Shown: positions 3,411-60,813, counted from the stretch's first letter. The stretch: 64,000 nucleotides of DNA from an uncultured Eubacteriales bacterium (GCA_949031345.1 CARNVA010000007.1:8768-72767), one strand, 5' to 3'. Notes: generated by a model not told the origin, from the sequence alone. Translations and numbers: made by a program.

Positions 3411-3438
3411 CAAAAAAGAGGAGTTATTTCCCCTCTTT
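3411..3438 (-). terminator. Rho-independent terminator overlapping the stop of the 3424..4194 gene
   Basis: Minus strand reads AAGAGGGG-AAATAA-CTCCTCTT followed by TTTTTT. Confidence 0.5.
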
Positions 3439-4194: not shown

Positions 4195-4418
4195 AAACAA
4201 CTCCAATATATTATAAACACCTTTATCATAAATAATAATCATTTTTAATCATAAATAATAATAAATTTTGCCTAGCTTGCATTATCTTATAATTGCCATA
4301 GATTTAAAAAGGGTTTATCATATAATGATAATGTAACTCTAAATTTTCAAAAAGTAAAGCAAATAAGATTTGATTTTGTTTTTTAAAGAAAAAACGCCCT
4401 ATCAACTCATTAGAAGTC

Positions 4419-4448
4419 AAAAAAAAGAGAGGTCATTTCCTCTCTTTT
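4419..4448 (-). terminator. Rho-independent terminator after the 4452..5516 gene
   Basis: Minus strand reads AAGAGAGG-AAATGA-CCTCTCTT followed by TTTTTTTT. Confidence 0.65.
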
Positions 4449-4451
4449 AAA

Positions 4452-5516: not shown

Positions 5517-5517
5517 A

Positions 5518-6504: not shown

Positions 6505-6684
6505 AGTCTCCTCCTTTATTATCTATATAAAATATAATATAGTCTCTATAGACCTATTTTAACTCATTTTTGTCTGCTATTCAAGTAAAATCGAAATTTA
6601 ATTTTAAATTTTGTACAAATTGTTTAAAAATTACCCTCTTGCCAAGCCCGTTTGCTTCCTTTTATAGCAAATAGGACGGTCAAA

Positions 6685-40487: not shown

Positions 40488-40545
40488 AGGGGATTATCCC
40501 CTTTTTTTGGGGGGTATTATACCCTTTTTTTGGGTTTATCCCCTT
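40488..40545 (+). terminator. Three tandem hairpin + T-run units after the 39459..40487 gene
   Basis: AGGGGATTATCCCCT-TTTTTT, GGGTATTATACCC-TTTTTTT, GGGTTTATCCCC-TTATTTT. The period is about 21-22 nt. Confidence 0.7.
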
Positions 40546-40571
40546 ATTTTAATTTTTTTTATTCTTAAAAA

Positions 40572-40605
40572 GAAAAAAAGCAGGTTATCAAAAGATAATC
40601 TGCTT
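40572..40605 (-). terminator. Rho-independent terminator of the giant gene
   Basis: Minus strand reads GCAGATTATC-TTTT-GATAACCTGC followed by TTTTTTTC, starting 15 nt after the stop. Confidence 0.7.
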
Positions 40606-40619
40606 TCTTTCTCAATCAA

Positions 40620-43600
40620 TTATTGATTTGCAAGTTTATCAAGTTTTTTCTTTCTTCTCTTAGCAAGAAGGATAATCAAAATGATTATTAAGATTACAAC
40701 TACGACTACTACTACAATTACAATAATGATTGTTGTCATTGTCTTGGTATTGACAATGATTTGAGCATCTTTATCAACGCACCAGAAAAGTCCGCTGTAG
40801 CTAAGTCTTGGGTCTGGATAGCTCTTGTAATGAAGCACATTTTTAAATTCATGTGCGCCAAGGTCTATCTTTCCCTTGAATGGATTTTCTTTTGTGCCGA
40901 TAGGCTCCCAATATCTGCCTTCAAAGCCGATATTGCTTGTTACTTTATAGCTGCACTCGCTGTAAGGAATGCCCTCGTCATTTGTTTCGCCATTATTTAC
41001 TGCATAAGCAACAAAGGCAAAATCTCTTGCTGTATTGATGAGATATGGGTCTTCATCTGTACCGCTTCCGCTAAGCCCAGACGCCCTTGCATCTTCATCA
41101 GTCCAAAGCACTCTTGCAAAGTATACATAGATGTTTATTTGATAACCAAAGAATCTATCCATGAAATCTTTGCCCATTGAAAGTGTGCCATTTACCACAT
41201 ATTCAGAAGCGTCAAAGGTTATGCCATCAACAACCACATAAGTCTTTTCATACTTGTAGTTTGCATTTGCGATTATTCTCATTGAGAAGTTGTCGCCATA
41301 CTTGACAGTCTTGCGGTCACCATTATTCACCTTATTTGAAGAGCCAGAGCCGTCTATGAAATAGAGTGTTCCAGACTTCAAGATTTCTGAATTATCAAGT
41401 GGTGAAGTCATTGCAAGATTGAAGGCAAGTGTGATGTCTTCTCTTGTGACCGGAATTGAAAGCTTGATTGAGTAATCTCCGCCATCAACTTCAGTGAGAT
41501 CTTTTACATCTAAGACATAACTGAATACATAAGTATTTGTTTCGCTGTCATAAACAGATTCAAAGATGCTTTGACCGAAGCCATAACCTCTTGATTTTTG
41601 AACAACTACAACCAAAGTATCGCCGACAGCTGCATTGAATACGCTGTTGTAATCACACTGCTTTCCATTTACAAGCACCTTAACAATTGTGTGAAGTGAG
41701 CCAAGCTCGCCTGCGTTAAAGTTTACTGCAACATTTCGGCCTTCAAACACTGCTGTAATGTCAAGTGGATAGTCAATGAGATTTGTAAATTCATATATGA
41801 TTTCACCAGCAACTCCAGGCTTGCCAATGTATTGCTCGCCTGTTGAATTGTTTTCCCAATATAAGAATTTATACCCTTCAATTGGCACTGCAACAAGAGT
41901 GAGAAGTTTTCCAGCGTCAAAGCTGCCGCTTAAAATTCCGCCATCCTGCCTTGCAAAGCTTTCGCCGCCATTTGCAAAGTCATTATTGTTGTTTTTAATA
42001 GTAAATTTAACTGTTGGGTTGTAAAGCGCTCTGACAACATATTCACCCATAACTAGATCTTTAATAGTAAAGCTCTTGCCGCGTTCGGTGATTTCTCCGC
42101 CATCGAGTTGAACAGTAAAACCAACAAATTCATATCCTGCTATTTCTGGAGCAGCAAACTCTAAGGTAGAGCCAACAGCAATTTCGCTATACCAGCGATT
42201 TTCCTGTCCAGTCCAAGCACTTGAGCCAAGGGCTGCAAGGTTGGTAATGAAATTGAAGTTTGAATAATTTGGGTCTTCAAGATATTTTGAAGGTGATACT
42301 TCTACTCTCACCTTAGCCCTGTCATACACATAGCGTGCGTAAAGGGTGAAAGTTTGAGTTGTTGCATCAAAGCTTCTATCTTGTTCATACATAGAGCCCT
42401 TATGAGTGTAACCAGTATTTTGCCAATTCATCATAATGTCATTGTATTTGTCAATGTATTGAATTGCATTTTCGTCACTTGTGTAGTAATAATATCCTGC
42501 AAAAGTGAAGCCCTTCTTCTTTGCAAATACAGTGCCATAATCGTTGGCTGAAAGACTGCTTAAATCCCACTCTTCGCCAAAGCGGATTTTCTTTTCCATT
42601 GTCACTGAGGTGTTTTCATCAACCACGAATTTCAAAGTATATTCTTTTGGCTCTACATAAACCACAATGGTTGCACCAGCTGTCACTTCATCAATGATAA
42701 AGTAAGCACTGTTTGTGAAGCCTGAGCTGAGTGGGTCTTCAGCAGTTACTTGTGAAACTTGAATGTTGTTGAAAGTTTCGTCACCTGAGTAGATAATGTG
42801 ATATTTAAGTAATCCGTCATCTCCTGTAAGGAGGCTGTATGAAATGAGTGAAGCAATGTCTACTCTAAGGCCGGCGCCAGTTACAACTGCAACATTGATT
42901 GAGTCACCACGGCTTGGTCTTGAAGAAACAAGCTCGTTTGATGTGTCAACAGTGAAAATTCCGCCGTGTACACCCTTTGTAATATCTTCGCCTTCATTGA
43001 CGAACATAATTTTAATATTGTTCTCTTTTGCGATAAAGCGCACGAGAATTTGTGAACCTTTTGTTGCGCCAGTGATTACATAGATGTCTTTTCCATTTAT
43101 GGTTGTCTGGCTTTGTATCATTCCTTTTGATGTGACAACTGAAGCTGTAAAGCCTTTTTCTGCAACAACTTCAAAGTAAAGCACTTCATCTGTATAAGAA
43201 ATGATTGTGTAGTTTCCGCCAATTACGAGGCTTCCTTGATATTCGTGATATTTATCATCTGAATATCTTTCGCCCTCACTGTTTGTCGCAAACACCTTTC
43301 CGCCCTTTGTAGAGCCAAGGTTGTCAATGTAGTTTACTTGAGTCGACGACTGAACAACCACTTCAATTTCGCTTGGTGTAAACACCACTTCAATATGTGT
43401 GATTGGGTCATAAAGATCAAGGTAGATTGAAATCTTGTTTCCATCAATTTCAAAGTCACCCTCGCCTGCCTTAACTCCATCAAGTAAAATCTCTGAAAGC
43501 TCATAACCATTTTGCGCTGCAAGCACAAGGTCAACATTAAGTCCAAGGAAGAAGTTTCCATTGTTTTGACCGATTACATCAACAGTGATGTCTTCACTTT

Positions 43601-46600
43601 CTTGAGAAGCTGTGAAGCTGCCCTTTCCAGTAGAAACAAATGTGATGTTGCGTTCTTTTCTTGCATAACATGCAAAGATTGGAATTATTCCCTCTTCGCC
43701 AGCTGCCTCTAAGGCATCTCTGATGTCACTTGAAACAACATAGTTTGTGTTTGGCTCTGTTGAAATTACATTTTCACCGATTTTCCAACCGATAAACTCA
43801 TAATTTTCAACAAGCTCTCTCTGAGTAAGAGTGATTGTCTTGCCAAAGTCAACAACTTGAACGCTGTCACTTGTGATTTCACCATACGCACCCTGACCTT
43901 CAGCCACATTTACACTGAATGTATATGTGCGAGGCGTTGCAGAAAATTCAATTGCAAAGTCTTCGTCAAAGCCTGCAAGTGAAGCTGAGAAGTAATAATA
44001 TCCGTCAGCATTAAGCACATTTGACACGCTTCCTTCAACAACATAGTTGTTCTCACCAGTTGCGAGGTCGCCAGCAGTGTAGCCATAGGCCATAACGCCA
44101 CTTACTGTGAAGGTTTCACCTGTTCTGATTAAGAAGGTGTCGCCTGAAAGTGTAATATTTGTTGAATTGAATGAAAGTCTTAAGAAGATGTTTCTCACAT
44201 CACTTACAGTCACTCTGTTGAGAGCGGCCTGAGCGCGTACTGAAAGTGAAGCACCGCTTACAAACTCTTCCCAAACATAGGTAAGAGTTTTCTTGTCTTC
44301 GCTGATGATTGGAGCATTTACTTTTCCGTTTCCAGCAAATACAACGCTTGATTCGGTAAATTCATAACCCTTCTTAGCAGTGTAGACAATTCTCACCCTT
44401 TGCTCTGTCTTAGCAACAACAGTTGTGCCTGAAATTGTCACTTCTTCGTCATCAATGAACACTTGATAATTTGCAATGTTTTCATTGAAGAGTTGAAGAG
44501 TATTGTCATCTGGCAAAATGTTGAAGACAACTGAGCTGTCTGCGATTAAGTTTTTAATGGTGAAGTAACCATTGTTTGTGATTTCTCCATGAAGATTTTC
44601 ATCATTCACTTCAAAGGTGTAGCCCTGTTTTGGAGTAACAGCCACTTGAAGATTTGTCTCGTTGTAAACGAGTGTGAAGGTCTGACCACTTATAATATTG
44701 TTGCCATTTACATTGACAGTAAGTCCATCGTCAAACACAATTGTGAGGTCAAATGGAGCATTTGTCCAAGTTGCAGCAAAGGTAAGTGTGAATACATTTT
44801 CGTTTGCGTCATAAACGCCGATTGTCTCTAAAATGTCACCTTCGTTGTAAATTTTTCCATCTTTGTCACTCCACTGAGCATTCTTTCCAGCAAGCACTGC
44901 TTGAGGGAATGCGCCAAGCGTCTGACCATAACGAGCAGAAATTACATTCGAGCCATTGATTGCACCATCGGTTGCGTCAAAGGTAATCTTATAAACTGCA
45001 CTTGTCCAAACTGCGTCAAGCACAACTGTCTTGTCGCCGTCAAGGTCTGGGAAAAGTTCATCAACAATTTGCTGGAAGTTTTTCTCGCCAAGTCTCAAGC
45101 CATTTGAGTAGGTATAACGCTCTAAGGTGTAAGTACCTTCAGTAGCAGTAAGTCTTGGTAGATTTTCTTCTGTAATTGAAGCAAGCTCTGAGTATTTATA
45201 AACTGGAGAAAGTGAATTTGAGTCTGTTCTGTTTGTATTTGCAGGAAGGTTGAGATTGATGCTTAATGTAATTTCCATCTCATCATAGGTCACGCTGAGC
45301 ACAACGGCTGAAGCAATGCCCTTCAAGATTGCCTTTCCTCTCAAATTGCCAGTATCAGTCAAATCTTTGTCTTTTGTTTCTCCACTTACAAGGTTGTAAG
45401 ACCTTACTTTGAAACCTCTTTCACCCACGAAATCAATTTCAACATCGGTGAAATATTCAACATAATAAACTCCGTCAACGTTTGTAAGTGCGTTTGCTGG
45501 GTTTGCTGTGACTGTAATATCTTCAACATTGTTTCCACTTAATGTAATTGAATATTTTTCAATTGTCCAAGAAGCGTAAATATTTAAAGTCAAGTTTTCG
45601 CCAGATTGGGTTGTAACAACCTCTTTAAGCACATCTACAATATTTGAGCTGTCAAGAGTGATATATCCACCATTTTGTGCAAGTTTATAACCTGCGAATT
45701 TATAACCTTTTCTTGTTGGCTGTCTGAATGAAGCAAGAAGTTCTTCGGCTGTTATATTTTGAAGTGGATAGCCCACTTTGAATGTAAAGCCTTCAGCAAC
45801 AATTCCGTCACTTACAAACTTGCCACCACTTACAAGGTCTGCGTGCTCTGTTGAAGCATTTACAACAATTTCAATTGTGAAGTTGTTGATATCACCTTTC
45901 ACATTATTAAGCACTTTGTAGTTTGCACTATCTTCGCCCTTAATTGAAAGAAGCACTGGTTTGTTTGTGCCAACCTCAGCGTCATAGAAGCCACTGTTGT
46001 CAAGGTCAATTTCAACCCTGTCTCCGCTTTCAATATAAGCGTCAATATTTGTATCGAATGAAGCAGGAAGTTTGTTTGTTTCATCATATTGTTTCACAAC
46101 TTCAACACTTGAAAGGTCAAGGTCTTTCACTTTGATTTCAACTGTTATGCTGTAGCCGTTTGACATAAGCCCAACAAAGTTTGAAGAAGTGATGACAAAT
46201 GAAATTGTCATGTCACTGCCCGCTTTAAGAAGTCCAGCACCAGAAATACTGCCATTGTCAAGCAAGATTGAGCTGATTGAAGCAAAGCCATTTTCAACAT
46301 CGGTTGTAACTCCGCCAATTGAAAGAGTGAAGCCTTCAATGAGAGCAAGCACATCTTCAATTGCAGTATTTACGCCAATCTGACCATAAGTGAAAGTCTT
46401 GTTTGTAATATCAAATGATACGCTTTCAACTACGGCTGGAGTGATTGAGCCCACATATTTGCCTTCTGGCAAGATGTAGTTTGCAATGTCTGCGCCCGCA
46501 ATAGCAATGCCTAAGAGGTCAATGTTTTGACCTGCTGTAACTTGAGCATATCTTCCTGTAAGATATACCTCGTCACCTTCAACAACATTTGTAAAGTTTG

Positions 46601-52600: not shown

Positions 52601-55600
52601 TTTCGCAGCTGTTTTTATCTTTATTTACAGTGTTGTAAACAAAGTCAACTGTTCCGTCATAAACCTTGTCGATTGAATTGATTGTAAGTGTGCGTTTTTC
52701 AACTGAAATTTGTGCTTTGTCAGCATTTGCAAAATCTACGCCAGACCATTTTGCGTCAACAGCTTCTTGAGTGAGCACCACAGAAAGTGGATATTCACCA
52801 AACACTGCTTCAGCCGATGAGATCATGGTGATAAACTGGGTATAATGCTCTTTTTCCTCTGCTGGGATTGCGATTTGTTTGTCACCGCTTAAGTAATAAA
52901 TATCAAAAGTGGTTGAATAGCTTTCGCTTCCTGCAGTGATTGTAAGAGTATAATTTGTGCCGTTGTAAGTAATTGCATAGCCGGTTGCGGCATAGCCATT
53001 GTATGTATAGATAATCTTTTCATCAAAGCTTACCTGAAGTTTTCCGCTTGGTGTGCGGATTTCAAATTTAACATCAAATACATTTGCAAAATCTTCTGCA
53101 TCAATTGCATAGTTTTGTCTGTCCTCACTGCTCATAAGATTTGCCGCAGTAAGTGCATATTGTCCAATAGCCTCGCCTGCCACTCTGTCAAACGAGATGT
53201 CAACAGTGTCATTTGAGTTTTCTCTTATTGTAACTGTTGCCTTAATTGGGCTTGGGTCTTCAAGACCGAAATACTTGAAGAATTCAAAGCCGTCAGCATA
53301 GTTTGATAGACTGATAACATATTGAATAATATTTACATCAAGGTCTTGTTCATAAATTCCATCAGCAAACTGATAGACACCCTTCATATTGCTGTCAATG
53401 CTTGCCTTGATTGTGTATGTGTCAACATTTCTTACAGAAGTTGCAATTTGACCATTGCTGCCATAAACGCCTGCATTGAAGCGTAATGCATTGCCACTGT
53501 TGTCTGTGTTTGGCACATTGAGAAGGGTTGTTTGACCCTTGCTTTCTTCATTATTATTGATAATAAAGTCAAGAATTATATTTCCCTTCTGATCGGCGTT
53601 GTTGAAAGTAAGGTCTCCGCCATTGTATGAAAGAGAAATTGTATTTCTGTTGATGGTAAGCCCAACTTCCTCTGATTGAGTAACGCTTTGTGGAGCAAAA
53701 CCGTCAGAGAAGGTGTAGGTAATTGTCACAGTATAAACATCATTTAAGCTGAAGCTTGCCTGTGAATTTTCATCCACGATTGTAAATGAGTTGTCAACGC
53801 TTGAGAATATGAAGCTTGCACCCTTATCTTTGCCCACCATTGTCGCAGTGAAACCAGTCACTCCGTTTGGTGCTTGAATTTGAGTAAATTCTGAAAGAGG
53901 CAATTTGATTGATGAAACGCTTGCATAATATTCAAGTGCCTTTGTCACCTCAAAGTCAAAGCGGTCGAATTTCCACTTCGCAGTGATAGTCTCTGTTTGA
54001 CCAGCCTTAGCATTTGATATGAAGCATTTTCCATTGTCTCTGTCTTCTCTTATTGTAATGTTGCTTTCTGAAGATTCTTTGTTATAACCATTGAATGAAA
54101 GATAATCAGCCTCTCTCACTGGATTGTTAAGCACGACTTCGCCTGTGCTTGAAGAGGTATAGATTGTCTCATTTTTAGCGCCTTCCCCATTTGCTCCGCC
54201 ATTGTAATTCACATTGACTTTCACAACATCGGTCAAAACGCCATAGAAACTTGCATTTGCGTCGCCGCCATTTGGAGCAACTTCCAAACTATAACCACTT
54301 ACAAGCCCATCATCGAAGAGAGCTGCAATTGAAGTCATGTTTACACTATTTGAAACAAATGAAAGCAAAGTCAAATCATTTTCTCTTTCCACGCTCATGT
54401 CAATATTTACTTTGACTGAAACTGTGTGAGAAGCAAGATAGTTTTTGTTGAAGAAAAGCTTAAGGTCTTGAGTGCCATTTCCAACGAATGAAAGCACAAC
54501 TTGATTGTCATCAGAAATTACACTTCCCTGCTCGCCTTCAGGCAATTCTTTTGAAACATTGTCAATCAAAAGATTCGATATAAACAAGTTGTCAGACTTA
54601 TCTTTATATAATGATGAAAGAGCATTGGCAAGCACTCCACCATTTGCAGTGAGATATCTTGTGCTGTAGTCAAGCCCAAGCGCATCTCTTGAGTCAAGAA
54701 GGGTAAATCTTTTTTCATTTGTCACATTCCACTCAAAGTTTGTGTCGCGGTCATCAACATGTCCTTCAATTGCAAGGTCATAGATGTTGAACACTTTTGC
54801 ATCCTCATCATGATTTAATGTGCCTGTGTAGACCCCTGCTGGAGAACCCATCTTGAGAGTAAGTTTTGAATAAGTGTATTTGAAAGTCACCTTTCCAACA
54901 TTGAAAGGAATTTCATTTGCCTTGTTGACATAAACGGTTGTTTCAACGCCGTCAAAATAGTAAGCTGTTCCGTCAACAAAGTCAACAGTAAATCTTGCCT
55001 TTTCTATTGTGAGAACGCCGTCAAGTGTAACATAGTAATTCCCGCCCTCTTTTACAACATTTGATACAAGATTTTCATAAAGCATATCACCAAGTTTGTC
55101 TGTATCAACTTTCATTTTAAGTGATTTGCCGCTGCCAGTGTTAAACTTGCCGCTGCCATCACTGTCAAGCACTTCATAAGCACTTGGATTGAAATACTCT
55201 TCTGTTGTCTTTGGCTCTGGTTTAGTCTCAAGTTGTGACCTATCTGTTCCATCCCAGTCAAACTTATAGATAAACTGACCATAATCATTGCTTACGCCCT
55301 CAACAAATTCCTTTGTGCCATTATATATAGTTGCAAAGTGGTTGTCGAAGAAGTGAAGCTCGTTTTTAGCCATAGTGAAATCAAGCATAGCACTTGTGGC
55401 TGAATAAGAAATTGTTCCAAGTCCGATTGTTCCGTCATCTTTCAGACCATATCTTGTAAGAGTATCGGCAATTGTGATTTCAAACTTAATTGAATAATCG
55501 CCATTTTTTAACAATTTGTTTATATTAAACAGGTCAACAGTCTCAAATGAAACAGTGCCGTCGGCTGAAGTGACAATGAATTTAAAGCCTGTCACCTTCT

Positions 55601-58600
55601 CGCCATTTTTGAGCACCAGATTTTTATCTGATGCTGAATTATTGTTTCCGTCAACATTGTTTCCGCCAAGGAAACCTCTTATTACATCGCGCGAGTTGAG
55701 CAGATAGAAGATAGGTTTTCCAGAAGCAGTCACATCATCACTAAATTTGATTTGTGCAGTAGTTGTATTGTCAACCTTTTCCCAAACAGGAACAACTGCA
55801 ATATCACTTAATGATTTGAAAATTTCGTCAGTCTTAAATACGCCTGTTTGAACGCCCTTGTTGTCGCCTTCAAGTGCTGAATAAGCCCAGCCTGCCAAGC
55901 GATAACCAAGTCTGTTTACGCTGAGGGCGCCATCACTTACAGCATCAAGAATATTTGATGGAAGTGCGTCATAAGTTGCATTGATTGTTATTTGACCATT
56001 TCCGTCAATTTGACCCCAGTCACCGCCGTCCTTAGTTTCATCCCATGCATAAGTGTAATAACCGCCATCAGAATTTACCAGACTGATGATATATCTTGCA
56101 GGGTCGCGCTCGGTTGTAAGCAAAACTGGGTTGGCATTGTCATTTATTGCAAACTTATACTCTTCAGCAATAAATTGCAAGAAAAGCTCTGGAGTAAGTT
56201 TATAATTTGTGTCACCGCCACCAAGCTTGGTAATCTTTCCATCTTGAGAAAGACTGAAACCTTTGGCAACATAACCATTTTTAGTAGCGCCTGAGAAAGT
56301 TTGAGTCACAACAGGAGAAGAGGTGTCTGAAATTGTATAGTTTGCAACGCCTGTCTTTTCTGTTGTTTCGTTGAAGTAAATTTTGTCACCAATTGAAAGC
56401 TCTTTTGGTGTGCCATAACCGTTATCAACGCTTAAGATATATTTAATAATGTTCCATTGTGCAACAAGGTCAACAGTGGCAAACTTTTCGCCATCAGTTG
56501 AAGCAAACTTGTTCCATGTCTGAACGCTTGTTGCAGAAATGTCGTTGCCCGCTTCATTGAAAAGGTCAATCCAGCCCTTTCCATTAAGGATAAATGTAAG
56601 CACTCCATTTTCATCTGCAACTGTGCCATATTTGGCTGAATATGTATTGAAAGCATATCCAAGATTAAAGAAGCTGTATTTTGAAAGATTGATTTTTGTG
56701 TTGAAGGTAAGTGCGCCATCAGCCTTGATTGCATTCAGCGCGCCAGAAGTTGTTTCAGTAAGATTTTTATTCTCAAGAGTAAGCCCGCTGTCAGTGTTTT
56801 CGTAAAGTTTGCCTTCACCCGCTTCACCGGCATTGTAGTTTACAGAAACTGTCCTTCTTGCAACAAGTGCTGCCAAGTCGTTAAACACCACAGTGTTGCC
56901 CTGACTGCTGCCCGCTGTCGCAATTGCATCAACGAATGCTTGGTTTGCTTTAAGGCCATCATAAGAGCCCTCTTCTGTGCTTATCACTTCGCCGTTTTTG
57001 AGATACCAGCCAAGCAGGTAATATTGTGAGTCAAGCGCAATGCTTCCAATCTCACCGCTTAAGCTTAATACACCCTCGCTTGAGAAACTGAAAGTCAATG
57101 TTGCAAGATGAGGTGTGTCAATATCCACCAAACTTGAGTCATCTCTTACAAACAATTTGTTGATGTTAAGCTCAACTTGCTTATATTCAAAATAAACCTT
57201 CAAAATTGTGTCATAGTCGCCAAGACTAAGCTTTGCCTCAGAGCTGTTATATCCGCCCTTTTGATATTCATTCTCGTTTGCAAAGTCGTCATGGTCAGCC
57301 CCGTCATTATAAAGAGCCTTTTTTCCGTCCTGCCAAAGCTCATACTTAGCAGTGCGATATATTGCACCAGAGCCGATTGTTGTGAGTGCATAATTTACAT
57401 CAAACTCTCTGCCTTCACTGTTTGGTTTAAGCCCAACAGCACCTTGATAGAAACTATCAAAAAGCACCGCTTTGTTTTCATCAGTCACCTGAACAACATT
57501 TTCACCACTGCCATCGGATACATAATATTCAACTTTTAAGTCATAACTGCGCTCTTCGAAATAAATCTTAATCTCATAATTTATCTCGTCAGCATGACTG
57601 TAAGCTGTCTTGAATAAGTCTTTAGCAGATACAGTTGAGGTTTTATAGAATTGGCTTTGATAATAAGCGCTGTCAATATCAGTTGTGCCTTCAAAATATT
57701 TTGTGCCGTTGTTCACATTAGGCTCTTTTGTAGAGCCATCTTTTGTCTCAACGATGACAACTTTAGCCGCCTGATATTTGCCATTCTTTGTAATTTCAAT
57801 AATGTCATCTTTTGCCTGAGTTTGCCCACTTTCATCCTTTCCAGAAACAATTGGAACAAACACTCCTTGAAGATTTACTCCAAGAGCCTGTCCAGCATTG
57901 ATTGTTGCTTTGATTACATTTGAAGAGGCGTTCAACGCCAATTCTTCATCACTTGCATTTGGGTTTTCTTGATATTTTGCAAAGTCAAGGAAATTGATAG
58001 TCACTCTTGTCCTAACTGTGCCGATAAATGTGGTAATTTTGCTTCCAGTCATATATACGCCTTGAAGCTTAATGTTCCAACTTGAATAATAATCAAGACT
58101 TGGATTGCTGTTAAAGCCACCATTTGTGCCTGCAACAAACTCTGTTGTGTAAGTCTGCAAGCCTTGAATTGTTGGGTCATCACTGAAATTTTTGCTGTCA
58201 ACATTCAAGATATACTTGCTTCCAGAATGTTTATTATCTTTCAATGCATCAACGATTGAAAGATTGAAATTTGCATTGTCGTTGTATCTTACAAGGAAAA
58301 CTGGTCTGTTTGTCTCGTCAATTACACCGCCAGCAACCTGTGGAGTGCTTCCATCAAACTCTCCAGTTGTAAAACCATAGTCGCCATTTACAGAGTATTC
58401 AACAGTCTCCCCGTCTTTCTGTACCATAATCTTTGCATGAACAAAGCCACTCGCATTGTCGTCAGCATAAGGCAAAATGTTTAATCTGAATGCTGGTAAA
58501 GTTACATCTGTTGAAACTCCATCAACATCAACAGGTGTGATATCAACATCAACAAATTCTCTTTCAACAACCAGATAAAGCTCGCCACCATTGCCAACAA

Positions 58601-60446
58601 CATGGTCTACAGTGACCTCATATTGATTGAGCCCATCTTCTGTCTTTGACTTGATTGCATAAACAGAAACTGGCTGATAAATATCATTGTTTTTTCCGCT
58701 TACTTCATAGCTTCCGCCAATGTTTGTGTAATTTGTAAAGTGTGTATAAAGACCACTTGTCACATCAGCTTTTGTTCCGTTTAAAACAATCGCACCTTGA
58801 GCATAGCTTTCAATTGCCAACTGCCCTTTTTGATTTAAAATTGTGTGAGGCTCGCTTACAGAAGCAATATCAGCAAGCATAAAACCTTGTTTTAAAACTA
58901 CGGTGAATGTATAACTGTCTCCTGTAAAATCGTTGCTTGTTATATACTTTTCACTAGCCTCTTCCGCACTCATAGAGTTTGACATACTTTTGACAACATT
59001 TGTAAGTGGTGAATTTAATAATGGAACAATTTTTCCACCTTCATCGCTTGCATAAGCAAAGTTTGCCGTAAAGTTTCTGCTATTATTTATATCGTTAATC
59101 CAATTCCATTTAAAGCAATATGTAGGAATTTCCCCACTAATTTGAGGATAAGAAAGGTCATAGTCGTTTGCATTCTCAACATTAACCTTGCTGCCTGACT
59201 CACTTCCTCTGTAAAGCCCTTCAAAAGCATAACCAAGTCTTTCCTTGTATTGTGAATTATTCGTGAAGAAATCTGCAAAAGTTTGGTCATAATTAAAGTT
59301 GACAGATATTTCATTTCCTTGTGTACCTCTTGTTCCATAGCCATAATTTAAAGAAACAGAGAGTGATTTAGCGTCATAAGTTATAGATTTTACCAAACCT
59401 TCCTCAGAGCCATCTATAAGCTTAATATTAGGCTCTTTCCCGTTTAATAGAGCATAAACCTTGTTTGTGTCACCCAAAGCATCCACTCTTTTCGTTGGAT
59501 TTGAATTGTAATAAAGATTGCAAACCCTAGCGGTGTAATTTGAATAATTTTCATCATTTAAAAGCACTCTCAAAAGGTTTGACTCATACCATGATTGATT
59601 ACCAAACTTGAAAGCACCTTCTCCAGATTGATAAAAACCAACCTTTCCTCTTGTGATTGTGGATCTATTAGATTGTACTTGTATATGTAATTTTTCTGAA
59701 TCGGCGTTTGTTAAAGTATCAATATTATTTCCTCTTACATAAGCATAGCCATCAAAAATGTATGTAGGAGCATTAACAATTCCAATGCCACTAATGTTAT
59801 TTCCTGATTGGTCAGTTTTTGTTGTGCATTCATCATAGCAGTTGATTACATAACCGCCATTCATAAATCCGATAAGTGCACCCTTTGCACCATTTGTATA
59901 AATTTGTTGCCAGCCAGTAAGTCTTACATCTGTGACAACTGCACCTTCAGTTACGCCAAATAAGCCTGCCCCTGAATCAGCACTAGAGCCCCCTTCGCAA
60001 GAGACCTCGTCAATTGATATGTTTGAAATTGTGTGGCCGTTTCCATAGAAAATTCCCTTAAAAGGCCTAGCTTGTGTGCCAATAGGGGTCCACAAAGCGC
60101 CATTGAGGTCAATGTCGCCATTCAGTGAAATCACCACTTTACCTGTGAAATCTGACACACCGTGGTTTACATTATAAGCAATTTCTGCAAGCCCAGCGGC
60201 ATCAGAAACCACATAAGCATTATCATGCCCATAAACAGATTCTCTGCTTACTGCCATTTCGCTTACATTTCCGCTTGACCAAAGCTTGTCTGGCATAGAA
60301 GCAGCCAGTGGCTGAAGTGCCACCTTTTCGGTAGTGCTGCCCGTGTCAGCTTTTGCCCCTTTTAAGCTTGGAAATAAACAAAAACTGCCTGCCATAAATA
60401 GAACAAACAGAATTAAGTAAACCCCTTTACACATTTTCTTCAACAT
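40620..60446 (-). CDS. Giant surface protein (6,608 aa): signal peptide, GLUG-like head, long array of InlB-B-repeat (Listeria-Bacteroides repeat) and MBG-type modules, C-terminal TM anchor
   Basis: A single uninterrupted ORF of 19,827 nt. ATG is preceded by AAGGAGG with a 5-nt spacer. There are many (Y)TVTF...GY.F.GW...W modules and K(V/Q)YDG(T/N) modules. The N-terminus is hydrophobic and the C-terminus carries a poly-Ile/Val helix. Confidence 0.9.
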   Translation of the reverse strand: MLKKMCKGVYLILFVLFMAGSFCLFPSLKGAKADTGSTTEKVALQPLAASMPDKLWSSGNVSEMAVSRESVYGHDNAYVVSDAAGLAEIAYNVNHGVSDFTGKVVISLNGDIDLNGALWTPIGTQARPFKGIFYGNGHTISNISIDEVSCEGGSSADSGAGLFGVTEGAVVTDVRLTGWQQIYTNGAKGALIGFMNGGYVINCYDECTTKTDQSGNNISGIGIVNAPTYIFDGYAYVRGNNIDTLTNADSEKLHIQVQSNRSTITRGKVGFYQSGEGAFKFGNQSWYESNLLRVLLNDENYSNYTARVCNLYYNSNPTKRVDALGDTNKVYALLNGKEPNIKLIDGSEEGLVKSITYDAKSLSVSLNYGYGTRGTQGNEISVNFNYDQTFADFFTNNSQYKERLGYAFEGLYRGSESGSKVNVENANDYDLSYPQISGEIPTYCFKWNWINDINNSRNFTANFAYASDEGGKIVPLLNSPLTNVVKSMSNSMSAEEASEKYITSNDFTGDSYTFTVVLKQGFMLADIASVSEPHTILNQKGQLAIESYAQGAIVLNGTKADVTSGLYTHFTNYTNIGGSYEVSGKNNDIYQPVSVYAIKSKTEDGLNQYEVTVDHVVGNGGELYLVVEREFVDVDITPVDVDGVSTDVTLPAFRLNILPYADDNASGFVHAKIMVQKDGETVEYSVNGDYGFTTGEFDGSTPQVAGGVIDETNRPVFLVRYNDNANFNLSIVDALKDNKHSGSKYILNVDSKNFSDDPTIQGLQTYTTEFVAGTNGGFNSNPSLDYYSSWNIKLQGVYMTGSKITTFIGTVRTRVTINFLDFAKYQENPNASDEELALNASSNVIKATINAGQALGVNLQGVFVPIVSGKDESGQTQAKDDIIEITKNGKYQAAKVVIVETKDGSTKEPNVNNGTKYFEGTTDIDSAYYQSQFYKTSTVSAKDLFKTAYSHADEINYEIKIYFEERSYDLKVEYYVSDGSGENVVQVTDENKAVLFDSFYQGAVGLKPNSEGREFDVNYALTTIGSGAIYRTAKYELWQDGKKALYNDGADHDDFANENEYQKGGYNSSEAKLSLGDYDTILKVYFEYKQVELNINKLFVRDDSSLVDIDTPHLATLTFSFSSEGVLSLSGEIGSIALDSQYYLLGWYLKNGEVISTEEGSYDGLKANQAFVDAIATAGSSQGNTVVFNDLAALVARRTVSVNYNAGEAGEGKLYENTDSGLTLENKNLTETTSGALNAIKADGALTFNTKINLSKYSFFNLGYAFNTYSAKYGTVADENGVLTFILNGKGWIDLFNEAGNDISATSVQTWNKFASTDGEKFATVDLVAQWNIIKYILSVDNGYGTPKELSIGDKIYFNETTEKTGVANYTISDTSSPVVTQTFSGATKNGYVAKGFSLSQDGKITKLGGGDTNYKLTPELFLQFIAEEYKFAINDNANPVLLTTERDPARYIISLVNSDGGYYTYAWDETKDGGDWGQIDGNGQITINATYDALPSNILDAVSDGALSVNRLGYRLAGWAYSALEGDNKGVQTGVFKTDEIFKSLSDIAVVPVWEKVDNTTTAQIKFSDDVTASGKPIFYLLNSRDVIRGFLGGNNVDGNNNSASDKNLVLKNGEKVTGFKFIVTSADGTVSFETVDLFNINKLLKNGDYSIKFEITIADTLTRYGLKDDGTIGLGTISYSATSAMLDFTMAKNELHFFDNHFATIYNGTKEFVEGVSNDYGQFIYKFDWDGTDRSQLETKPEPKTTEEYFNPSAYEVLDSDGSGKFNTGSGKSLKMKVDTDKLGDMLYENLVSNVVKEGGNYYVTLDGVLTIEKARFTVDFVDGTAYYFDGVETTVYVNKANEIPFNVGKVTFKYTYSKLTLKMGSPAGVYTGTLNHDEDAKVFNIYDLAIEGHVDDRDTNFEWNVTNEKRFTLLDSRDALGLDYSTRYLTANGGVLANALSSLYKDKSDNLFISNLLIDNVSKELPEGEQGSVISDDNQVVLSFVGNGTQDLKLFFNKNYLASHTVSVKVNIDMSVERENDLTLLSFVSNSVNMTSIAALFDDGLVSGYSLEVAPNGGDANASFYGVLTDVVKVNVNYNGGANGEGAKNETIYTSSSTGEVVLNNPVREADYLSFNGYNKESSESNITIREDRDNGKCFISNAKAGQTETITAKWKFDRFDFEVTKALEYYASVSSIKLPLSEFTQIQAPNGVTGFTATMVGKDKGASFIFSSVDNSFTIVDENSQASFSLNDVYTVTITYTFSDGFAPQSVTQSEEVGLTINRNTISLSYNGGDLTFNNADQKGNIILDFIINNNEESKGQTTLLNVPNTDNSGNALRFNAGVYGSNGQIATSVRNVDTYTIKASIDSNMKGVYQFADGIYEQDLDVNIIQYVISLSNYADGFEFFKYFGLEDPSPIKATVTIRENSNDTVDISFDRVAGEAIGQYALTAANLMSSEDRQNYAIDAEDFANVFDVKFEIRTPSGKLQVSFDEKIIYTYNGYAATGYAITYNGTNYTLTITAGSESYSTTFDIYYLSGDKQIAIPAEEKEHYTQFITMISSAEAVFGEYPLSVVLTQEAVDAKWSGVDFANADKAQISVEKRTLTINSIDKVYDGTVDFVYNTVNKDKNSCEINLSGLVSVNGVDDEVSISGKISLKNAGKRNLSNIVLSNVGRGESYTLVYADDLQATVIADSTSTVSFNTSLTNLPYGDLKDDTILEIVNNKFAPTFSYAGGKTGEIDKNCFIITDYEIKDAVYSTGKYLKAGTYTIVFTVTSKDFTFKEALGGLDEVYTTTYEKTIVVDKKVIEITNSTLTITKQYDGNNELLGKFVGQNVNAVGGFYSSNGLLSGDIITVTSGTYSDSLIASGKKVTLVYDLSNDDSVNYTITTNVTGDITSTPLIFNKNGNSGDIYNPVADRYETTFANNKITSFENANPMSLSYNGNIDSLIGDILANGNRLIREGYINTGWKLGVGESAITISRDMSANDKATLLQAAVDGGNIGIEINAIWKRKSYTVTFAIANGQLSIDGTAAGTTLILPYYNEGEEVVTLAVTADEGYKFVGRTLFAANIDAAIASGQNDKNATITLARITDNVTLTVNTSEIVVRIIVDYNKPGSDYVVSTETEGWIGVQSRDLKYSEMLAGNLPELTLNHGYIFDRWTTGGVLGEAGATVNTGENIWQRINGASLERDNLAGITFYASWKEDEIDVNISYSNASIAVFDIDEDRKISPTNVDGNDVYKVLYTHDIRIEITSNDFYMWTGFEVTPEKSFGFTESKPNNLRTGEAIIDTIKDTTNVNIEISPMKFSFATSYVTPDGTEIAEKSGDISGEYDITKGENFTLSDLFANKTYTAAIGTYTQEAWAEGLTNNFALNAKLVDVIKAICGGVPEQERYDKNGITLKAVFEGVIYTVTFDKTDRKGVDFAGAEAGQQTVTRQYEYGKPMTNIPTLTQSDDEEYVWHKIENKGTQAQIVETFAEGQLLVSQHFRSADHTLDLKAAWGLVYNLVIDITGNVDKYNSVKYDGFNESGTKLEVRYFNGATKLFTFSLAKGYELGEVSGLESEKYILTENTLTILGLEAHTNITVSIVAKAYNVTIETNEKRYYTISGTTQFEIRYDENIAAKFNSLIFTRPGYDLKALMWGTRTFATFDGSAFTFASEFINGTGFVVSDDELYEIVNGTRDITLSPVWQVKADYSYISLVTTGTTLTYNGGEQAVATSGIYVDGNEVLSIGVQGNGDEITGYYYLLDGVRTNAASDFSLMQKNVLSSKAIFVLEIKDNLTGQTRTLSSSEVNVAILRSVVSIANAKLSTFYSGTNVYYPTSTDEQLNSLGKVTYAEDGADNRELSIDRVELVDDKGLYEAGNSFAVKYYLNNAGGFDISNYSGLSIEGGFVTFVTDDSLKAKVEKAQIILSFKEKGYYKDAAHTVRNLGFVTSAGVETFDIKVNKVNTNDKVIKVYNLASEFIYEYSAVDAMGVERKENFEILLAEDSFFKIISTDQAYRIDLQTKYFNAGDFTLADNSANVVKATGFEQTNVGIKGTLENGDLNFMTSEGELIFSIVGNGQSRAYILIQKGVSLSLSLEIGGTMNVLQWSELSENEAEQITELTTVLNTLEGAAARTETREVSDDATIVAFVTDYKAIMLRLGDIASEGKGDTGYVYVKLGSSVSLPSPEADDHEGDIKGFEFESWISANDKLTIAGNTLTASAEAGIAADSVTANWLLETPDGESQDITFSAKIDLNGKEEITLDRMLGGEGDITNRNGLISYTYRITKGGVEVATSDTFTLPTNTTSNGEYILTITASRSGYQPKSLELSFNVTVERLVLGAMELSDIKFVYQNKDYLPELYVTFTGAGLGREKVADLLGKADSSYSLTLTEDKTGVNVGEIKLAGTYTVSLVADETIFDLSSASLDSEIQIAVAQAEIVVGMDDIPSALRSKLFGNTDPEFTFDTTMFEGDAQQELTISLSRESGESIGTYRFTVGRPSNDNFYVTITEDAIFTINQSDVEVTIRVDNPLVVTYTKKAPTITLTYDNLAGKWVITLGEASSTITLTYVDGDEVKELDGFLKVLALENLTLTADGAINAASYSEADITISGRGNFSSYLLDVDFTIEKVVLNLDSTSKVFDRNDTINKEDANFTNVVEGDEVYLTGRYAQVTAGQNIDLLGIAIAGADIANYILPEGKYVGSITPAVVESVSFDITNKTFTYGQIGVNTAIEDVLALIEGFTLSIGGVTTDVENGFASISSILLDNGSISGAGLLKAGSDMTISFVITSSNFVGLMSNGYSITVEIKVKDLDLSSVEVVKQYDETNKLPASFDTNIDAYIESGDRVEIDLDNSGFYDAEVGTNKPVLLSIKGEDSANYKVLNNVKGDINNFTIEIVVNASTEHADLVSGGKFVSDGIVAEGFTFKVGYPLQNITAEELLASFRQPTRKGYKFAGYKLAQNGGYITLDSSNIVDVLKEVVTTQSGENLTLNIYASWTIEKYSITLSGNNVEDITVTANPANALTNVDGVYYVEYFTDVEIDFVGERGFKVRSYNLVSGETKDKDLTDTGNLRGKAILKGIASAVVLSVTYDEMEITLSINLNLPANTNRTDSNSLSPVYKYSELASITEENLPRLTATEGTYTLERYTYSNGLRLGEKNFQQIVDELFPDLDGDKTVVLDAVWTSAVYKITFDATDGAINGSNVISARYGQTLGAFPQAVLAGKNAQWSDKDGKIYNEGDILETIGVYDANENVFTLTFAATWTNAPFDLTIVFDDGLTVNVNGNNIISGQTFTLVYNETNLQVAVTPKQGYTFEVNDENLHGEITNNGYFTIKNLIADSSVVFNILPDDNTLQLFNENIANYQVFIDDEEVTISGTTVVAKTEQRVRIVYTAKKGYEFTESSVVFAGNGKVNAPIISEDKKTLTYVWEEFVSGASLSVRAQAALNRVTVSDVRNIFLRLSFNSTNITLSGDTFLIRTGETFTVSGVMAYGYTAGDLATGENNYVVEGSVSNVLNADGYYYFSASLAGFDEDFAIEFSATPRTYTFSVNVAEGQGAYGEITSDSVQVVDFGKTITLTQRELVENYEFIGWKIGENVISTEPNTNYVVSSDIRDALEAAGEEGIIPIFACYARKERNITFVSTGKGSFTASQESEDITVDVIGQNNGNFFLGLNVDLVLAAQNGYELSEILLDGVKAGEGDFEIDGNKISIYLDLYDPITHIEVVFTPSEIEVVVQSSTQVNYIDNLGSTKGGKVFATNSEGERYSDDKYHEYQGSLVIGGNYTIISYTDEVLYFEVVAEKGFTASVVTSKGMIQSQTTINGKDIYVITGATKGSQILVRFIAKENNIKIMFVNEGEDITKGVHGGIFTVDTSNELVSSRPSRGDSINVAVVTGAGLRVDIASLISYSLLTGDDGLLKYHIIYSGDETFNNIQVSQVTAEDPLSSGFTNSAYFIIDEVTAGATIVVYVEPKEYTLKFVVDENTSVTMEKKIRFGEEWDLSSLSANDYGTVFAKKKGFTFAGYYYYTSDENAIQYIDKYNDIMMNWQNTGYTHKGSMYEQDRSFDATTQTFTLYARYVYDRAKVRVEVSPSKYLEDPNYSNFNFITNLAALGSSAWTGQENRWYSEIAVGSTLEFAAPEIAGYEFVGFTVQLDGGEITERGKSFTIKDLVMGEYVVRALYNPTVKFTIKNNNNDFANGGESFARQDGGILSGSFDAGKLLTLVAVPIEGYKFLYWENNSTGEQYIGKPGVAGEIIYEFTNLIDYPLDITAVFEGRNVAVNFNAGELGSLHTIVKVLVNGKQCDYNSVFNAAVGDTLVVVVQKSRGYGFGQSIFESVYDSETNTYVFSYVLDVKDLTEVDGGDYSIKLSIPVTREDITLAFNLAMTSPLDNSEILKSGTLYFIDGSGSSNKVNNGDRKTVKYGDNFSMRIIANANYKYEKTYVVVDGITFDASEYVVNGTLSMGKDFMDRFFGYQINIYVYFARVLWTDEDARASGLSGSGTDEDPYLINTARDFAFVAYAVNNGETNDEGIPYSECSYKVTSNIGFEGRYWEPIGTKENPFKGKIDLGAHEFKNVLHYKSYPDPRLSYSGLFWCVDKDAQIIVNTKTMTTIIIVIVVVVVVVILIIILIILLAKRRKKKLDKLANQ
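40623..40742 (-). other. C-terminal transmembrane anchor plus basic cytoplasmic tail of the giant protein
   Basis: TMTTIIIVIVVVVVVILIIILIILLA followed by KRRKKKLDKLANQ. No LPXTG-like sorting motif precedes it. Confidence 0.85.
40743..41085 (-). other. C-terminal partial GLUG-like module of the giant protein
   Basis: GSGTDEDPYLINTARDFAFVAYAVNNG...RYWEPIGTKENPFKGKIDLGAHEFKNV...YSGLFW. It is homologous to the N-terminal module. Confidence 0.7.
59900..60215 (-). other. N-terminal GLUG-like module of the giant protein
   Basis: VSDAAGLAEIAYNVNHG...ALWTPIGTQARPFKGIFYGNGHTISNISI...GAGLFGVTEGAVVTDVRL. Confidence 0.7.
60348..60446 (-). other. Signal peptide of the giant protein
   Basis: MLKKMCKGVYLILFVLFMAGSFCLFPSLKGAKA/D: basic N-region, hydrophobic core, and an AKA cleavage-type motif. 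Confidence 0.7.
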
Positions 60447-60507
60447 AAACGCCTCCTTTTTAGTGGCTTCGCTTTTGAATTTTTTAAGCGTAATAAACTC
60501 TTAAATA

Positions 60508-60536
60508 TATTATACAAGTTTATTTTACATAAGGCA
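60508..60536 (-). promoter_or_regulatory. Candidate promoter of the giant gene
   Basis: Minus strand reads TTGCCT, a 17-nt spacer, then TATAAT, about 60 nt upstream of the ATG. Confidence 0.4.
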
Positions 60537-60749
60537 AATAAAATTATGCAATTAAAAATATTTTTTGCCTTTTAATATAAAGCTTTTCATGAATATGAAA
60601 GGCCTCGTCTAACTTTTCCTATGAAATTTGAGTTTAGTATCCTCAATAAATTGCAAAAAAATGCCAACAAAATGAAAAAATAGGATGAAAAATTATATAA
60701 AATTCGACTAAAAAGAGGCTATGCCGAAAAAGATTATAATAAAGTTTGC

Positions 60750-60778
60750 TTGACAAAAGTTTCGCAATGCCCTAAACT
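60750..60778 (+). promoter_or_regulatory. Candidate promoter of trpS
   Basis: TTGACA, a 17-nt spacer, then TAAACT, about 35 nt upstream of the ATG. This leaves no room for a T-box leader. Confidence 0.45.
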
Positions 60779-60813
60779 GATTTTGAAAAGAAAATATTAA
60801 AAACGAGGATTTT

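Follow-up and report, generated by a model that had tools for sequence, protein, structure and literature searches.

A giant trpS-adjacent gene of uncultured gut Clostridia encodes a putative membrane-anchored surface fibre with an ancient internal duplication

In this work, we analysed a 64,000-nucleotide stretch of DNA from an uncultured Eubacteriales bacterium (GCA_949031345.1, CARNVA010000007.1:8768-72767; hereafter the window) and, within it, one giant coding sequence (CDS) on the minus strand (40620..60446) that makes up 31% of the 64-kb window. The data obtained allow us to conclude that this open reading frame (ORF) is a real, conserved gene of an uncultured gut Clostridia bacterium, not an artefact, and that it belongs to a rare family not previously described, although giant surface proteins as a general kind are already known. 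Its product of 6,608 amino acids (aa) is unusual in several respects: sequence repetition is nearly absent, the N-terminal third is dark to both Pfam and the PDB, the two ends carry homologous modules, and an ancient duplication of a 2-kaa block has been either kept or collapsed in the relatives. As to its role, sequence features and structure models together make it fairly probable that the product is a very long, non-enzymatic surface fibre, an adhesin or a spacer, membrane-anchored at one end. Size alone does not make the protein exceptional, and its function is one that we infer. All features of the giant gene given below lie on the minus strand.

The CDS starts with an ATG and comprises 6,608 codons followed by a TAA stop. 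Both the ORF listing and the translation, which contains zero internal stops, agree with the uninterrupted 19.8-kb frame reported in the initial annotation of this DNA, where the strand had been left unstated. The consensus Shine-Dalgarno (SD) sequence described there, AAGGAGG, was read directly from the sequence at 60452..60458, separated from the ATG at 60446 by the 5-nt spacer CGTTT. About 63 nt 5′ of the start codon, a promoter-like TTGCCT-17 nt-TATAAT (60537..60509) matches the consensus at 10/12 positions. The site that had been proposed as a promoter thus exists, but the frequency of promoter-like matches in the AT-rich 5′ spacer is not above the shuffled expectation; because such sites are no commoner than in shuffles, the giant-gene promoter is plausible only. 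The gene also has its own intrinsic terminator, just as had been claimed (40565..40603): GCAGAUUAUC-UUUU-GAUAACCUGC with a U7 tail forms a 10-bp stem with one mismatch, for which RNA folding of the minus strand gave a minimum free energy of -22.5 kcal/mol (z = -5.8). The hairpin was not called in a simple consensus terminator scan because of the single stem mismatch.

Evidence that the gene is genuine comes from public collections. The exact 6,608-aa protein is present on 6 contigs under the name ‘MAG: hypothetical protein [Clostridia bacterium]’ (MAG, metagenome-assembled genome), and its precomputed Pfam annotation gives only MBG_2. Its cluster at ≥90% identity has 39 members, and the 14 full-length members listed measure 6,607-6,619 aa. 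A 95%-identical allele of 6,612 aa (P0003) is encoded identically in 79 collection blocks (JGI, NCBI, ENA, Logan), including a 398-kb contig and mouse-gut metagenomes; altogether, four repositories supply dozens of independent assemblies with alleles of the giant protein, predominantly from mouse gut. Comparison of the window with the P0003 allele over 19.8 kb gave 0.163 synonymous (dS) and 0.025 non-synonymous (dN) substitutions per site, that is, a dN/dS of 0.15. The codon usage of the giant gene follows that of the window housekeeping genes (correlation of relative synonymous codon usage, r = 0.95), with a GC content at third codon positions of 0.33 vs. 0.35.

These observations bear on the least favourable explanation of so long a frame, namely that it arose by faulty assembly or repeat collapse, or is a decaying pseudogene still open by chance. 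The source of the sequence, metagenome-type assemblies, would suit such an origin. Opposed to it are the recurrence of the same 6.6-kaa ORF across the independent assemblies, the dN/dS of 0.15 and the lack of DNA repeats able to mislead an assembler: the longest exact repeats within the gene are ~21 nt, with no real tandem arrays, which bears out the statement in the initial annotation that long exact repeats are missing. Furthermore, in 18/18 sufficiently long loci of other genomes (see below) the orthologous frame runs for at least 4,375 codons without interruption, a stop being found in 0/24. Since the alleles come from many assemblies, dN/dS is 0.15 and the codons are native, the gene is not an artefact; this rival is effectively refuted, its residual probability being negligible, and the view of the ORF as a genuine gene, also backed by orthologues at the same locus of 21 other species, is strongly supported.

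To define the family, an exhaustive HMMER search was performed with aa 201-1400 against 1.84 billion representatives. It returned 11 relatives only, six of them full-length (P0110-P0114 and P0116; 4,453-4,855 aa), with 32-39% identity over the matched stretches. All six share one layout: signal peptide, N-terminal module, long middle part, C-terminal module, transmembrane (TM) helix and basic tail. End to end, homologues show 30-44% identity to the window protein, and family-profile matches of 2,177 and 2,441 bits cover it entirely. The longest match in the representative library measured 4,855 aa and the query's own cluster was absent, so that this library probably omits proteins longer than ~5,000 aa. 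Similarly, a word-index homology search (aa 1-1200; alignment A1) yielded only proteins with the ~130-aa N-terminal module, none longer than ~2,170 aa, and again the own cluster was absent.

A scan with alignment A1 of one genome for each of 185,579 species located 24 loci, all in uncultured Clostridia, Eubacteriales, Firmicutes or unclassified MAGs, with mouse (MGBC), rabbit, water deer and human among the hosts. The ORF is open to the end of the fetched DNA in 24/24 loci, up to 4,845 codons. In 21 loci the giant gene adjoins trpS, the gene for Trp-tRNA ligase (TrpRS), and the two genes are divergent in 20/21; in the window, trpS occupies 60814..61878 on the plus strand. TrpRS identity across the loci is 70-85% (99% in the own-species locus L008), whereas the N-terminal region of the giant protein shows 25-33% identity between species, which indicates that the giant protein evolves much faster than its neighbours. 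Beyond trpS, the window encodes a 407-aa protein with Pfam Big_2/Big_3 domains (62174..63397, plus strand) that is found in 18 related loci with 26-45% identity and with 95% identity in the own-species locus. This protein may be a partner of the giant one, or simply a surface protein that is syntenic with it. No relatives of the giant protein were found in IMG/VR viral contigs, and a prophage origin was rejected. A literature search found no description of this trpS-adjacent family.

As far as can be read from the sequence, the dominant internal structure of the giant protein is one ancient duplication of a ~2,050-aa super-block, which had gone unnoticed in the initial annotation. Copy 1 extends over aa ~1540-3640 (49527..55829; profile mapping, family-profile ~1396-3182) and copy 2 over aa ~3648-5351 (44394..49505; profile mapping and Smith-Waterman). 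The Smith-Waterman alignment of aa 1884-3150 with aa 3933-5121 is colinear and scores 468, compared to 80±15 (maximum 122) for shuffles and 66-121 for other region pairs, with 25% identity over 1,144 columns; the super-block copies as such are 21-25% identical. When a profile built from five short homologues was mapped onto the window protein, aa 1-3103 corresponded to profile 1-2902, aa 3135-3609 (weakly) to 2742-3182, and aa 3648-6608 to 1396-4439. Because the mapping restarts, profile ~1396-3182, about 2,050 aa, is present twice in tandem. The same restart is seen in 11 species loci (L008, L012, L013, L015, L016, L018, L019, L021, L022, L026 and L029), and locus L031 ends just past the weak second segment. 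Eight loci (L009, L010, L011, L014, L017, L023, L028 and L030) are colinear with the profile and have a single copy. Neighbour joining of the N-terminal region did not separate long from short forms, which are interleaved in the tree.

The relationship between the copies clearly points to the age of the duplication. In 10/10 long-form loci tested, the second copy scores 265-451 bits against window copy 2 (1,656 for L008) and 22-50 bits against copy 1; the first copy in 10/10 loci gives the reverse pattern, being orthologous to window copy 1. Since the copies match orthologously across the long-form loci, the duplication predates the radiation of the family. The long-term maintenance suggested in the initial annotation is thus borne out beyond its wording, both block copies being orthologously kept in at least 10 species. 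Every short form, in turn, is chimeric, copy-1-like early in the block and copy-2-like late. The switch lies at about profile 2300 in P0110 and L009, at about 2450 in P0111, L010, L011, L014, P0112 and P0113, at about 2450-2600 in L017, L023 and L028, and at about 2600-2750 in P0114, P0116 and L030. Because the switch points differ between lineages, the short forms are the products of at least three independent in-register deletions from the long form; were the pattern a property of the window copies alone, one common switch point would be expected.

Taken together, these comparisons indicate that the long form is ancestral and that the ~4,500-aa relatives are deletion derivatives. The opposite scheme, with a ~4,500-aa ancestor and a lineage-specific duplication, was overturned by the species genome scan, the copy orthology and the switch points. 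The short forms had looked ancestral because protein libraries seem to omit proteins longer than ~5,000 aa. The comparison of orthologue lengths that the initial annotation had recommended thus revealed a long form of ~6,600 aa and a short one of ~4,500 aa, and, in-register deletions having shortened the protein in other species, stalk length is seemingly an evolvable trait.

The ends of the protein are consistent with export and membrane anchoring, as had been proposed. According to sequence and hydropathy, aa 1-33 (60348..60446) constitute a signal peptide, MLKKMCKG-VYLILFVLFMAGSFCLF-PSLKGAKA, with a basic n-region, a 17-aa hydrophobic core and an AKA motif followed by D, where the sequence places the putative cleavage site. 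At the other end, a predicted TM helix (aa ~6571-6594; hydropathy maximum 4.3) precedes the basic tail AKRRKKKLDKLANQ (helix and tail, 40623..40736). A 19-residue scan of the whole protein found two hydrophobic segments only, the N-terminal signal and the C-terminal helix, and this layout is common to all homologues. The ectodomain between them is computed to comprise ~6,540 aa and ~714 kDa and to be acidic, with an isoelectric point of 4.45. The R/K-rich run of the tail (aa 6595-6608; 40623-40664) is conserved across the family, and in 5/6 full-length homologues the tail ends in ..L(E/D/N)K(L/Y)(A/S)NQ or similar; such a conserved, presumably cytoplasmic tail hints at an interaction with a cytoplasmic partner.

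Other modes of export and attachment were considered. Despite the hydrophobic segment and basic tail, no LPXTG-like motif is found within the last 5,700 aa, and no sortase gene among the Pfam-annotated ORFs of the window; sortase anchoring was ruled out by the missing LPXTG. A lipoprotein signal was rejected as well, because the conserved Cys in the h-region is not preceded by a lipobox. The RTX motif GGxGxD does not occur in the giant protein, whose ends are instead occupied by a Sec signal (N-terminal) and a TM helix (C-terminal), so that RTX export through a type I secretion system (T1SS) was excluded; two ABC genes at 18.4-22.2 kb, ~18 kb away, have no membrane-fusion or outer-membrane protein partner. 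Pfam gave no match to SLH, CWB or choline-binding modules in the giant protein.

What lies between the two ends had been described as dozens of diverged modules of 80-100 aa, and this picture was only partly confirmed: a few Pfam modules and a string of Ig-like (immunoglobulin-like) domains were found, while the sequence is almost non-repetitive and dozens of modules are not demonstrable. Pfam scans were run on long segments, on 760-aa segments and on each family member separately. Recognition by Pfam is confined to the C-terminal 55% of the protein, with nothing before aa ~2,950. In super-block copy 2, MBG_2 (PF18676) was recognised within aa ~4405-4480 (47007..47234; match aa ~4417-4477, 34.0 and 35.9 bits, cut-off 25), and two YDG modules (PF18657) at aa ~4598-4660 and ~4775-4860 (45867..46655; 37.1-40.3 bits, cut-off 25). 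In copy 1, an MBG-like paralogue at aa 2384-2457 (53076..53297) is visible to the internal profile alone, an iterated profile seeded from the Pfam-positive paralogue (independent E-value, i-E, 7e-23), and a YDG-like module at aa 2790-2883 (51798..52079) was likewise detected by an iterated profile (i-E 1.6e-24).

Modules of the Listeria-Bacteroides, or InlB B-repeat, type are also present, though divergent. Flg_new-like copies at aa 4890-4975 and 5083-5160 (44967..45779) have paralogues at aa 2923-3006 (51429-51680) and aa 3317-3399 (50250-50498), the four being linked by an internal iterated profile with i-E of 1e-13 to 1e-33, and one further copy is weak. For Flg_new itself (PF09479, TIGR02543) the best score was 22.9 bits (E 9e-5), under the 27-bit cut-off, with no NCBIfam match. 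The divergent InlB B-repeat Flg_new_2 (PF18998) was recognised at aa 6173-6203 (41838..41930; 26.4-31.1 bits, cut-off 23.6), and sub-threshold Flg_new/Flg_new_2 similarity occurs at aa ~2997-3045, ~4896-4927 and ~5517-5571. An NCBIfam scan of the giant protein found nothing meaningful. Thus, the annotation by hidden Markov models that had been suggested as a check gave a few MBG_2, YDG and Flg_new_2 modules on the one hand and, on the other, no match for the first ~2,400 aa. For aa 36-2400, the separate Pfam scan of every family member also found none, and PDB sequence searches (profiles for aa 36-2400, single sequences for aa 2401-6608) were negative.

Searches for internal repetition gave a consistent result. 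Self-BLASTP of the giant protein at E≤1e-3 produced no off-diagonal match. Sliding phmmer windows, and jackhmmer applied to the protein and seven homologues, revealed 2-5 copies per module type: four clear Flg_new-like copies plus one weak, two YDG-like, two MBG-like and two end modules. An all-against-all hhsearch with 110-column windows of the family profile detected a ~85-aa periodicity at profile 3050-3280 and a few Flg_new-type pairs, and no repeats in the N-terminal ~2,000 positions.

Structure prediction, likewise recommended earlier, was run with AlphaFold2 (AF2) for aa 36-1200 (alignment A1) and aa 1201-2400 (9-row alignment A2), and the models obtained are mostly beta-strand. For aa 1201-2400, the mean predicted local distance difference test score (pLDDT) is 64, with values of 70-90 over aa ~1560-2100 and 2160-2270, all beta. 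This stretch, aa ~1560-2270 (53637..55769), is predicted by AF2 and Foldseek to be a string of Ig-like beta-sandwiches for which Pfam and PDB sequence searches gave no match. A Foldseek comparison of the model with the PDB gave 25 hits at E<1e-3 (down to 1e-8), all of them tandem Ig-like or beta-sandwich chains: nuclear-pore gp210, cadherins, the Bacillus anthracis Sap S-layer protein, a pentameric S-layer protein, Dscam, the phage T5 pb4 fibre, MG domains of alpha-2-macroglobulin and the B. anthracis TIE protein. The model of aa 36-1200 is confident only over aa ~65-235 (pLDDT 76-88), the remainder having a mean of 50, and its Foldseek search gave nothing below E 1e-3 because most of the model is of low confidence. 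The prediction thus supports modular architecture at aa ~1560-2270 and is of low confidence over aa 235-1500. Consequently, a beads-on-a-string arrangement is seen in the models for ~700 aa, is indicated by Pfam for ~10 modules and is extrapolated elsewhere.

Both ends of the ectodomain carry a related module. The N-terminal one (aa ~70-205; 59832..60239) bears the motifs W.PIGT..PFKG, AGLFG and INCYD; the C-terminal one (aa ~6461-6572; 40731..41066) stands directly before the membrane anchor and is kept in all homologues. Their homology, aa 74-143 to aa 6464-6537, was detected by phmmer (i-E 4e-8), jackhmmer (2e-27) and hhsearch (probability 99%). In an index of 5.8 billion proteins, only the ~130-aa N-terminal module, among the first 1,200 aa, has relatives outside the family, namely surface proteins with GLUG, Peptidase_M26_N, SLH, dockerin, cohesin, Flg_new or type IX secretion system domains. 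The end modules align by BLAST, with 30-46% identity, to a segment located ahead of the first GLUG motif and overlapping the end of Peptidase_M26_N; this segment recurs every ~350 aa in the outside GLUG proteins. We call the modules GLUG-associated rather than members of either Pfam family because Pfam Glug (PF07581) and M26_N (PF05342) give no direct match, neither aa 36-240 nor aa 6433-6608 reaching E≤0.1.

This kinship raises the question of whether the protein is a secreted or contact-dependent effector or an enzyme carrier, whose long stalk would bear, for instance, a polymorphic toxin, a protease or a glycosidase. The similarity of the end modules to segments of M26 IgA1-protease-type (IgA, immunoglobulin A) and GLUG proteins is compatible with this, as is the presence of ~2,400 aa with no assignable fold family. 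However, the homologous segment in M26-type proteins is their non-catalytic N-terminal region, no peptidase family, and thus no catalytic M26 domain, was matched in any segment of the giant protein, and neither Pfam nor NCBIfam detected catalytic, peptidase, hydrolase or toxin families in it or in its homologues. Moreover, there is no immunity-like gene downstream. A toxin cassette was ruled out, since the C-terminus is a TM anchor, and we regard an effector function as very improbable. In the giant protein and the adjoining genes taken together, no catalytic, toxin, wall-binding or secretion-system components were detected.

Comparison of alleles within the species shows where the protein varies. 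All indels among the 14 full-length alleles fall within aa 260-495, and identity to the most divergent alleles is 64-70% over aa 201-400, 81-91% up to aa 1000 and 93-100% elsewhere, except for a dip to 85% at aa 3701-3800. The fast-evolving region, aa ~201-1000 (57447..59846), is Pfam-dark in all family members; its dN/dS is 0.23-0.45, while other parts mostly stay at ≤0.2 and the overall value is 0.15. Judging from these comparisons, the region after the N-terminal module is the least constrained part of the protein. As dS varies strongly along the gene, from 0.008 to 0.44, a recombination mosaic is suggested.

Such variability could also mean that the protein shields the cell from phages, host IgA or predators, or serves them as a decoy, in the form of a dense brush of long acidic fibres with a variable outer end. 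The fast evolution and allelic mosaicism of the sequence after the N-terminal module, the 25-33% interspecies identity set against 70-85% for TrpRS and the very acidic ectodomain are all in line with this; yet the same observations fit an adhesin, nothing points specifically to a shield, and the neighbouring genes provide no defence-system context. We therefore consider a shield improbable.

With these data, the preferred mechanism, that of an anchored fibre, can be set out. The protein would be exported by Sec, its signal peptide being cut after AKA33, and retained in a type I topology: its only TM helix, at the C-terminus, would hold it in the membrane, and the short basic tail would lie in the cytoplasm. 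The ectodomain would reach outward through the wall as a long fibre of beta-modules unrelated in sequence, Ig-like beta-sandwiches together with modules of the MBG, YDG and InlB B-repeat types. The distal end of the fibre would consist of the N-terminal module together with the fast-evolving ~800 aa next to it, and may bind or hold off an external partner, be it host mucus or glycans, food particles or another cell. Taking modules of ~100 aa with a length of ~4 nm each, one would arrive at a fibre of ~0.2-0.3 µm, the duplicated block accounting for ~70-80 nm; about one third of the stalk length would be owed to the ancient ~2,050-aa tandem duplication.

A long fibre-like adhesin or spacer, the leading hypothesis of the initial annotation, thus remains the best explanation and is consistent with the topology and the modules. 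Several points weigh against it. No recognisable ligand-binding domain was found in the giant protein, and the presumed head, aa 235-1000, is modelled by AF2 at low confidence (mean pLDDT about 30-50). The AF2 models span about one third of the protein, and both the count of ~60 modules and the fibre length are extrapolations. The Foldseek matches of the Ig-like string are generic, so that an adhesin and a structural coat are indistinguishable by them. In the variable region, dS is also elevated and dN/dS is below 1, which may reflect relaxed constraint and recombination and not diversifying selection. Finally, a monoderm envelope is assumed from the ‘Clostridia/Eubacteriales’ labels of the MAGs alone.

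In the main rival reading, the protein would have a structural role in the envelope, as a coat, spacer or ‘ruler’ that forms or supports an outer layer, fixes a distance or aids envelope integrity. What speaks for this role is, above all, the inheritance of the gene: unlike most strain-variable adhesins, it belongs to the conserved core, is passed on vertically and keeps a fixed place by trpS near oriC (21 loci). The topology, with a signal peptide and a C-terminal TM anchor, is that of the staphylococcal protein Ebh, the stalk length shifts in discrete steps of ~2,050 aa, and the Foldseek matches include Sap and the pentameric S-layer protein. These S-layer matches are, however, generically Ig-like, Pfam found no SLH, cell-wall-binding or self-assembly domain, and a fast-evolving N-terminal region suits a surface facing an outside partner better than a lattice. 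We therefore rate an envelope role as unlikely, while giving it more weight than any other rival. A bolder conjecture, in our opinion a long shot, is a clade-defining envelope organelle: a titin-like ruler of ~0.2-0.3 µm that would set the spacing to host or partner, with length quanta of ~2,050 aa removed by in-register deletion and end modules that would mediate head-to-tail or cell-cell contacts.

The anchored fibre proposed here can be compared with several known systems. Ebh and Embp of Staphylococcus are very large surface proteins with a signal peptide, a C-terminal membrane anchor with a basic tail and no LPXTG; they are proposed to be wall-spanning rods of many near-identical alpha-helical FIVAR/GA repeats, and Ebh is proposed to contribute to envelope integrity. 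The window protein agrees with them in its signal peptide, in the TM anchor and basic tail at its C-terminus and in the absence of LPXTG, but it has no Pfam match to FIVAR/GA, is mostly beta in the modelled third and is essentially non-repetitive. It may thus be Ebh-like in topology, not being a member of the Ebh/Embp group. SiiE, LapA and MpIBP are RTX adhesins of diderm bacteria, exported by T1SS by means of a C-terminal secretion signal and possessing stalks of highly similar Ig-like repeats. The window protein shares with them strings of beta-sandwiches, a (here putative) distal binding region and a size range of hundreds of kDa to MDa; it differs in its Sec signal, its TM anchor, the absence of GGxGxD and the lack of repeat similarity in the N-terminal 2,000 aa.

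Internalins combine a leucine-rich repeat (LRR) binding domain with GW or LPXTG anchoring. The InlB B-repeat/Flg_new and MucBP-type beta-grasp modules of Listeria and lactobacilli are of a type shared with the window protein, whereas no LRR or LPXTG was found in the latter and such modules make up <10% of it. The motifs W.PIG, GLFG and I.NCY recall GLUG/M26_N proteins, such as the N-terminal region of streptococcal IgA1 protease and GLUG proteins with SLH or dockerin domains; these, however, have long GLUG arrays, some with a protease, compared to one short copy per end and no protease in the window protein. S-layer/SLH proteins differ in that the window protein has no SLH match, though some distant relatives of its N-terminal module carry SLH. 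A further comparison is with the proteins of 10,000-30,000 aa with Listeria-Bacteroides repeat domains from gut Clostridia (West-Roberts et al. 2023, bioRxiv 10.1101/2023.11.21.568195). They resemble the window protein in their origin from Clostridia of the mammalian gut, in the Flg_new repeat type and in the proposed binding to surfaces of the host or of other cells; the window protein is smaller, has few Flg_new modules and a TM anchor, and belongs to a distinct family with no description in that paper.

The giant gene lies on the chromosome: longer contigs from this species show recF-dnaA and jag-yidC-rnpA-rpmH ~5 kb beyond trpS, shortly past the right end of the window. The GC skew of the plus strand is negative throughout the window and most genes, the giant gene included, are on the minus strand; given the skew, the gene strand and the nearby recF-dnaA, the giant gene is probably co-oriented with replication close to oriC. 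The remaining genes of the window are housekeeping ones (gltX, dnaB, typA, rpsF-ssb-rpsR, lon, ABC transporters, rplI). T-box control of trpS is common in Firmicutes; in the 367-nt spacer between the giant gene and trpS (60447-60813), no Rfam match at the gathering threshold and no T-box leader before trpS were detected.

On the other side of the giant gene, a convergent 342-aa ORF (39459-40487) has no Pfam match and a K/E-rich C-terminus. It forms a species-conserved cluster of 42 members, and truncated versions of 66-257 aa are found in several assemblies. The spacer between the two genes is 132 nt in the window (40488-40619) vs. 497 nt in the P0003-type strain (L001 29840-30336), where an extra ~365-nt AT-rich stretch is called as an 86-aa ORF; the terminator hairpin of the giant gene is kept in both strains. 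Just after the 342-aa gene, at 40488-40550, there are three related short palindromes with G/C ends and T-runs, GGGGATTATCCCC, GGGGGGTATTATACCC and GGGTTTATCCCC, of which the terminator scan called only the middle one; an exact search with the generic pattern found no further copies in the window. Two kilobases from the giant gene, at 36969-38660, lies a gene whose 563-aa product contains a CsaB-like polysaccharide pyruvyl transferase domain. In other Firmicutes, wall polymers are modified by CsaB-like enzymes so that SLH proteins can be anchored to them; the window, however, revealed no SLH protein. A 441-aa protein encoded at 23199-24524 matches DUF2099 (‘uncharacterized protein conserved in archaea’) with E 9e-53, which is unexpected for Clostridia.

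Few gene products of gut bacteria are as poorly understood as giant surface proteins, and the family described here is invisible to standard annotation. It provides a conserved marker locus for a clade of uncultured Clostridia of mammalian guts, and its ~2,400 beta-rich residues, which have no Pfam or PDB sequence relatives, may hold new domain families. The occurrence of ~6,600-aa and ~4,500-aa forms, with one ~2,050-aa block lost several times independently, constitutes a natural experiment in fibre length. Should the fast-evolving N-terminal region bind host mucus or glycans, the protein would be a possible determinant of the colonisation niche and of strain differences in the mouse gut.

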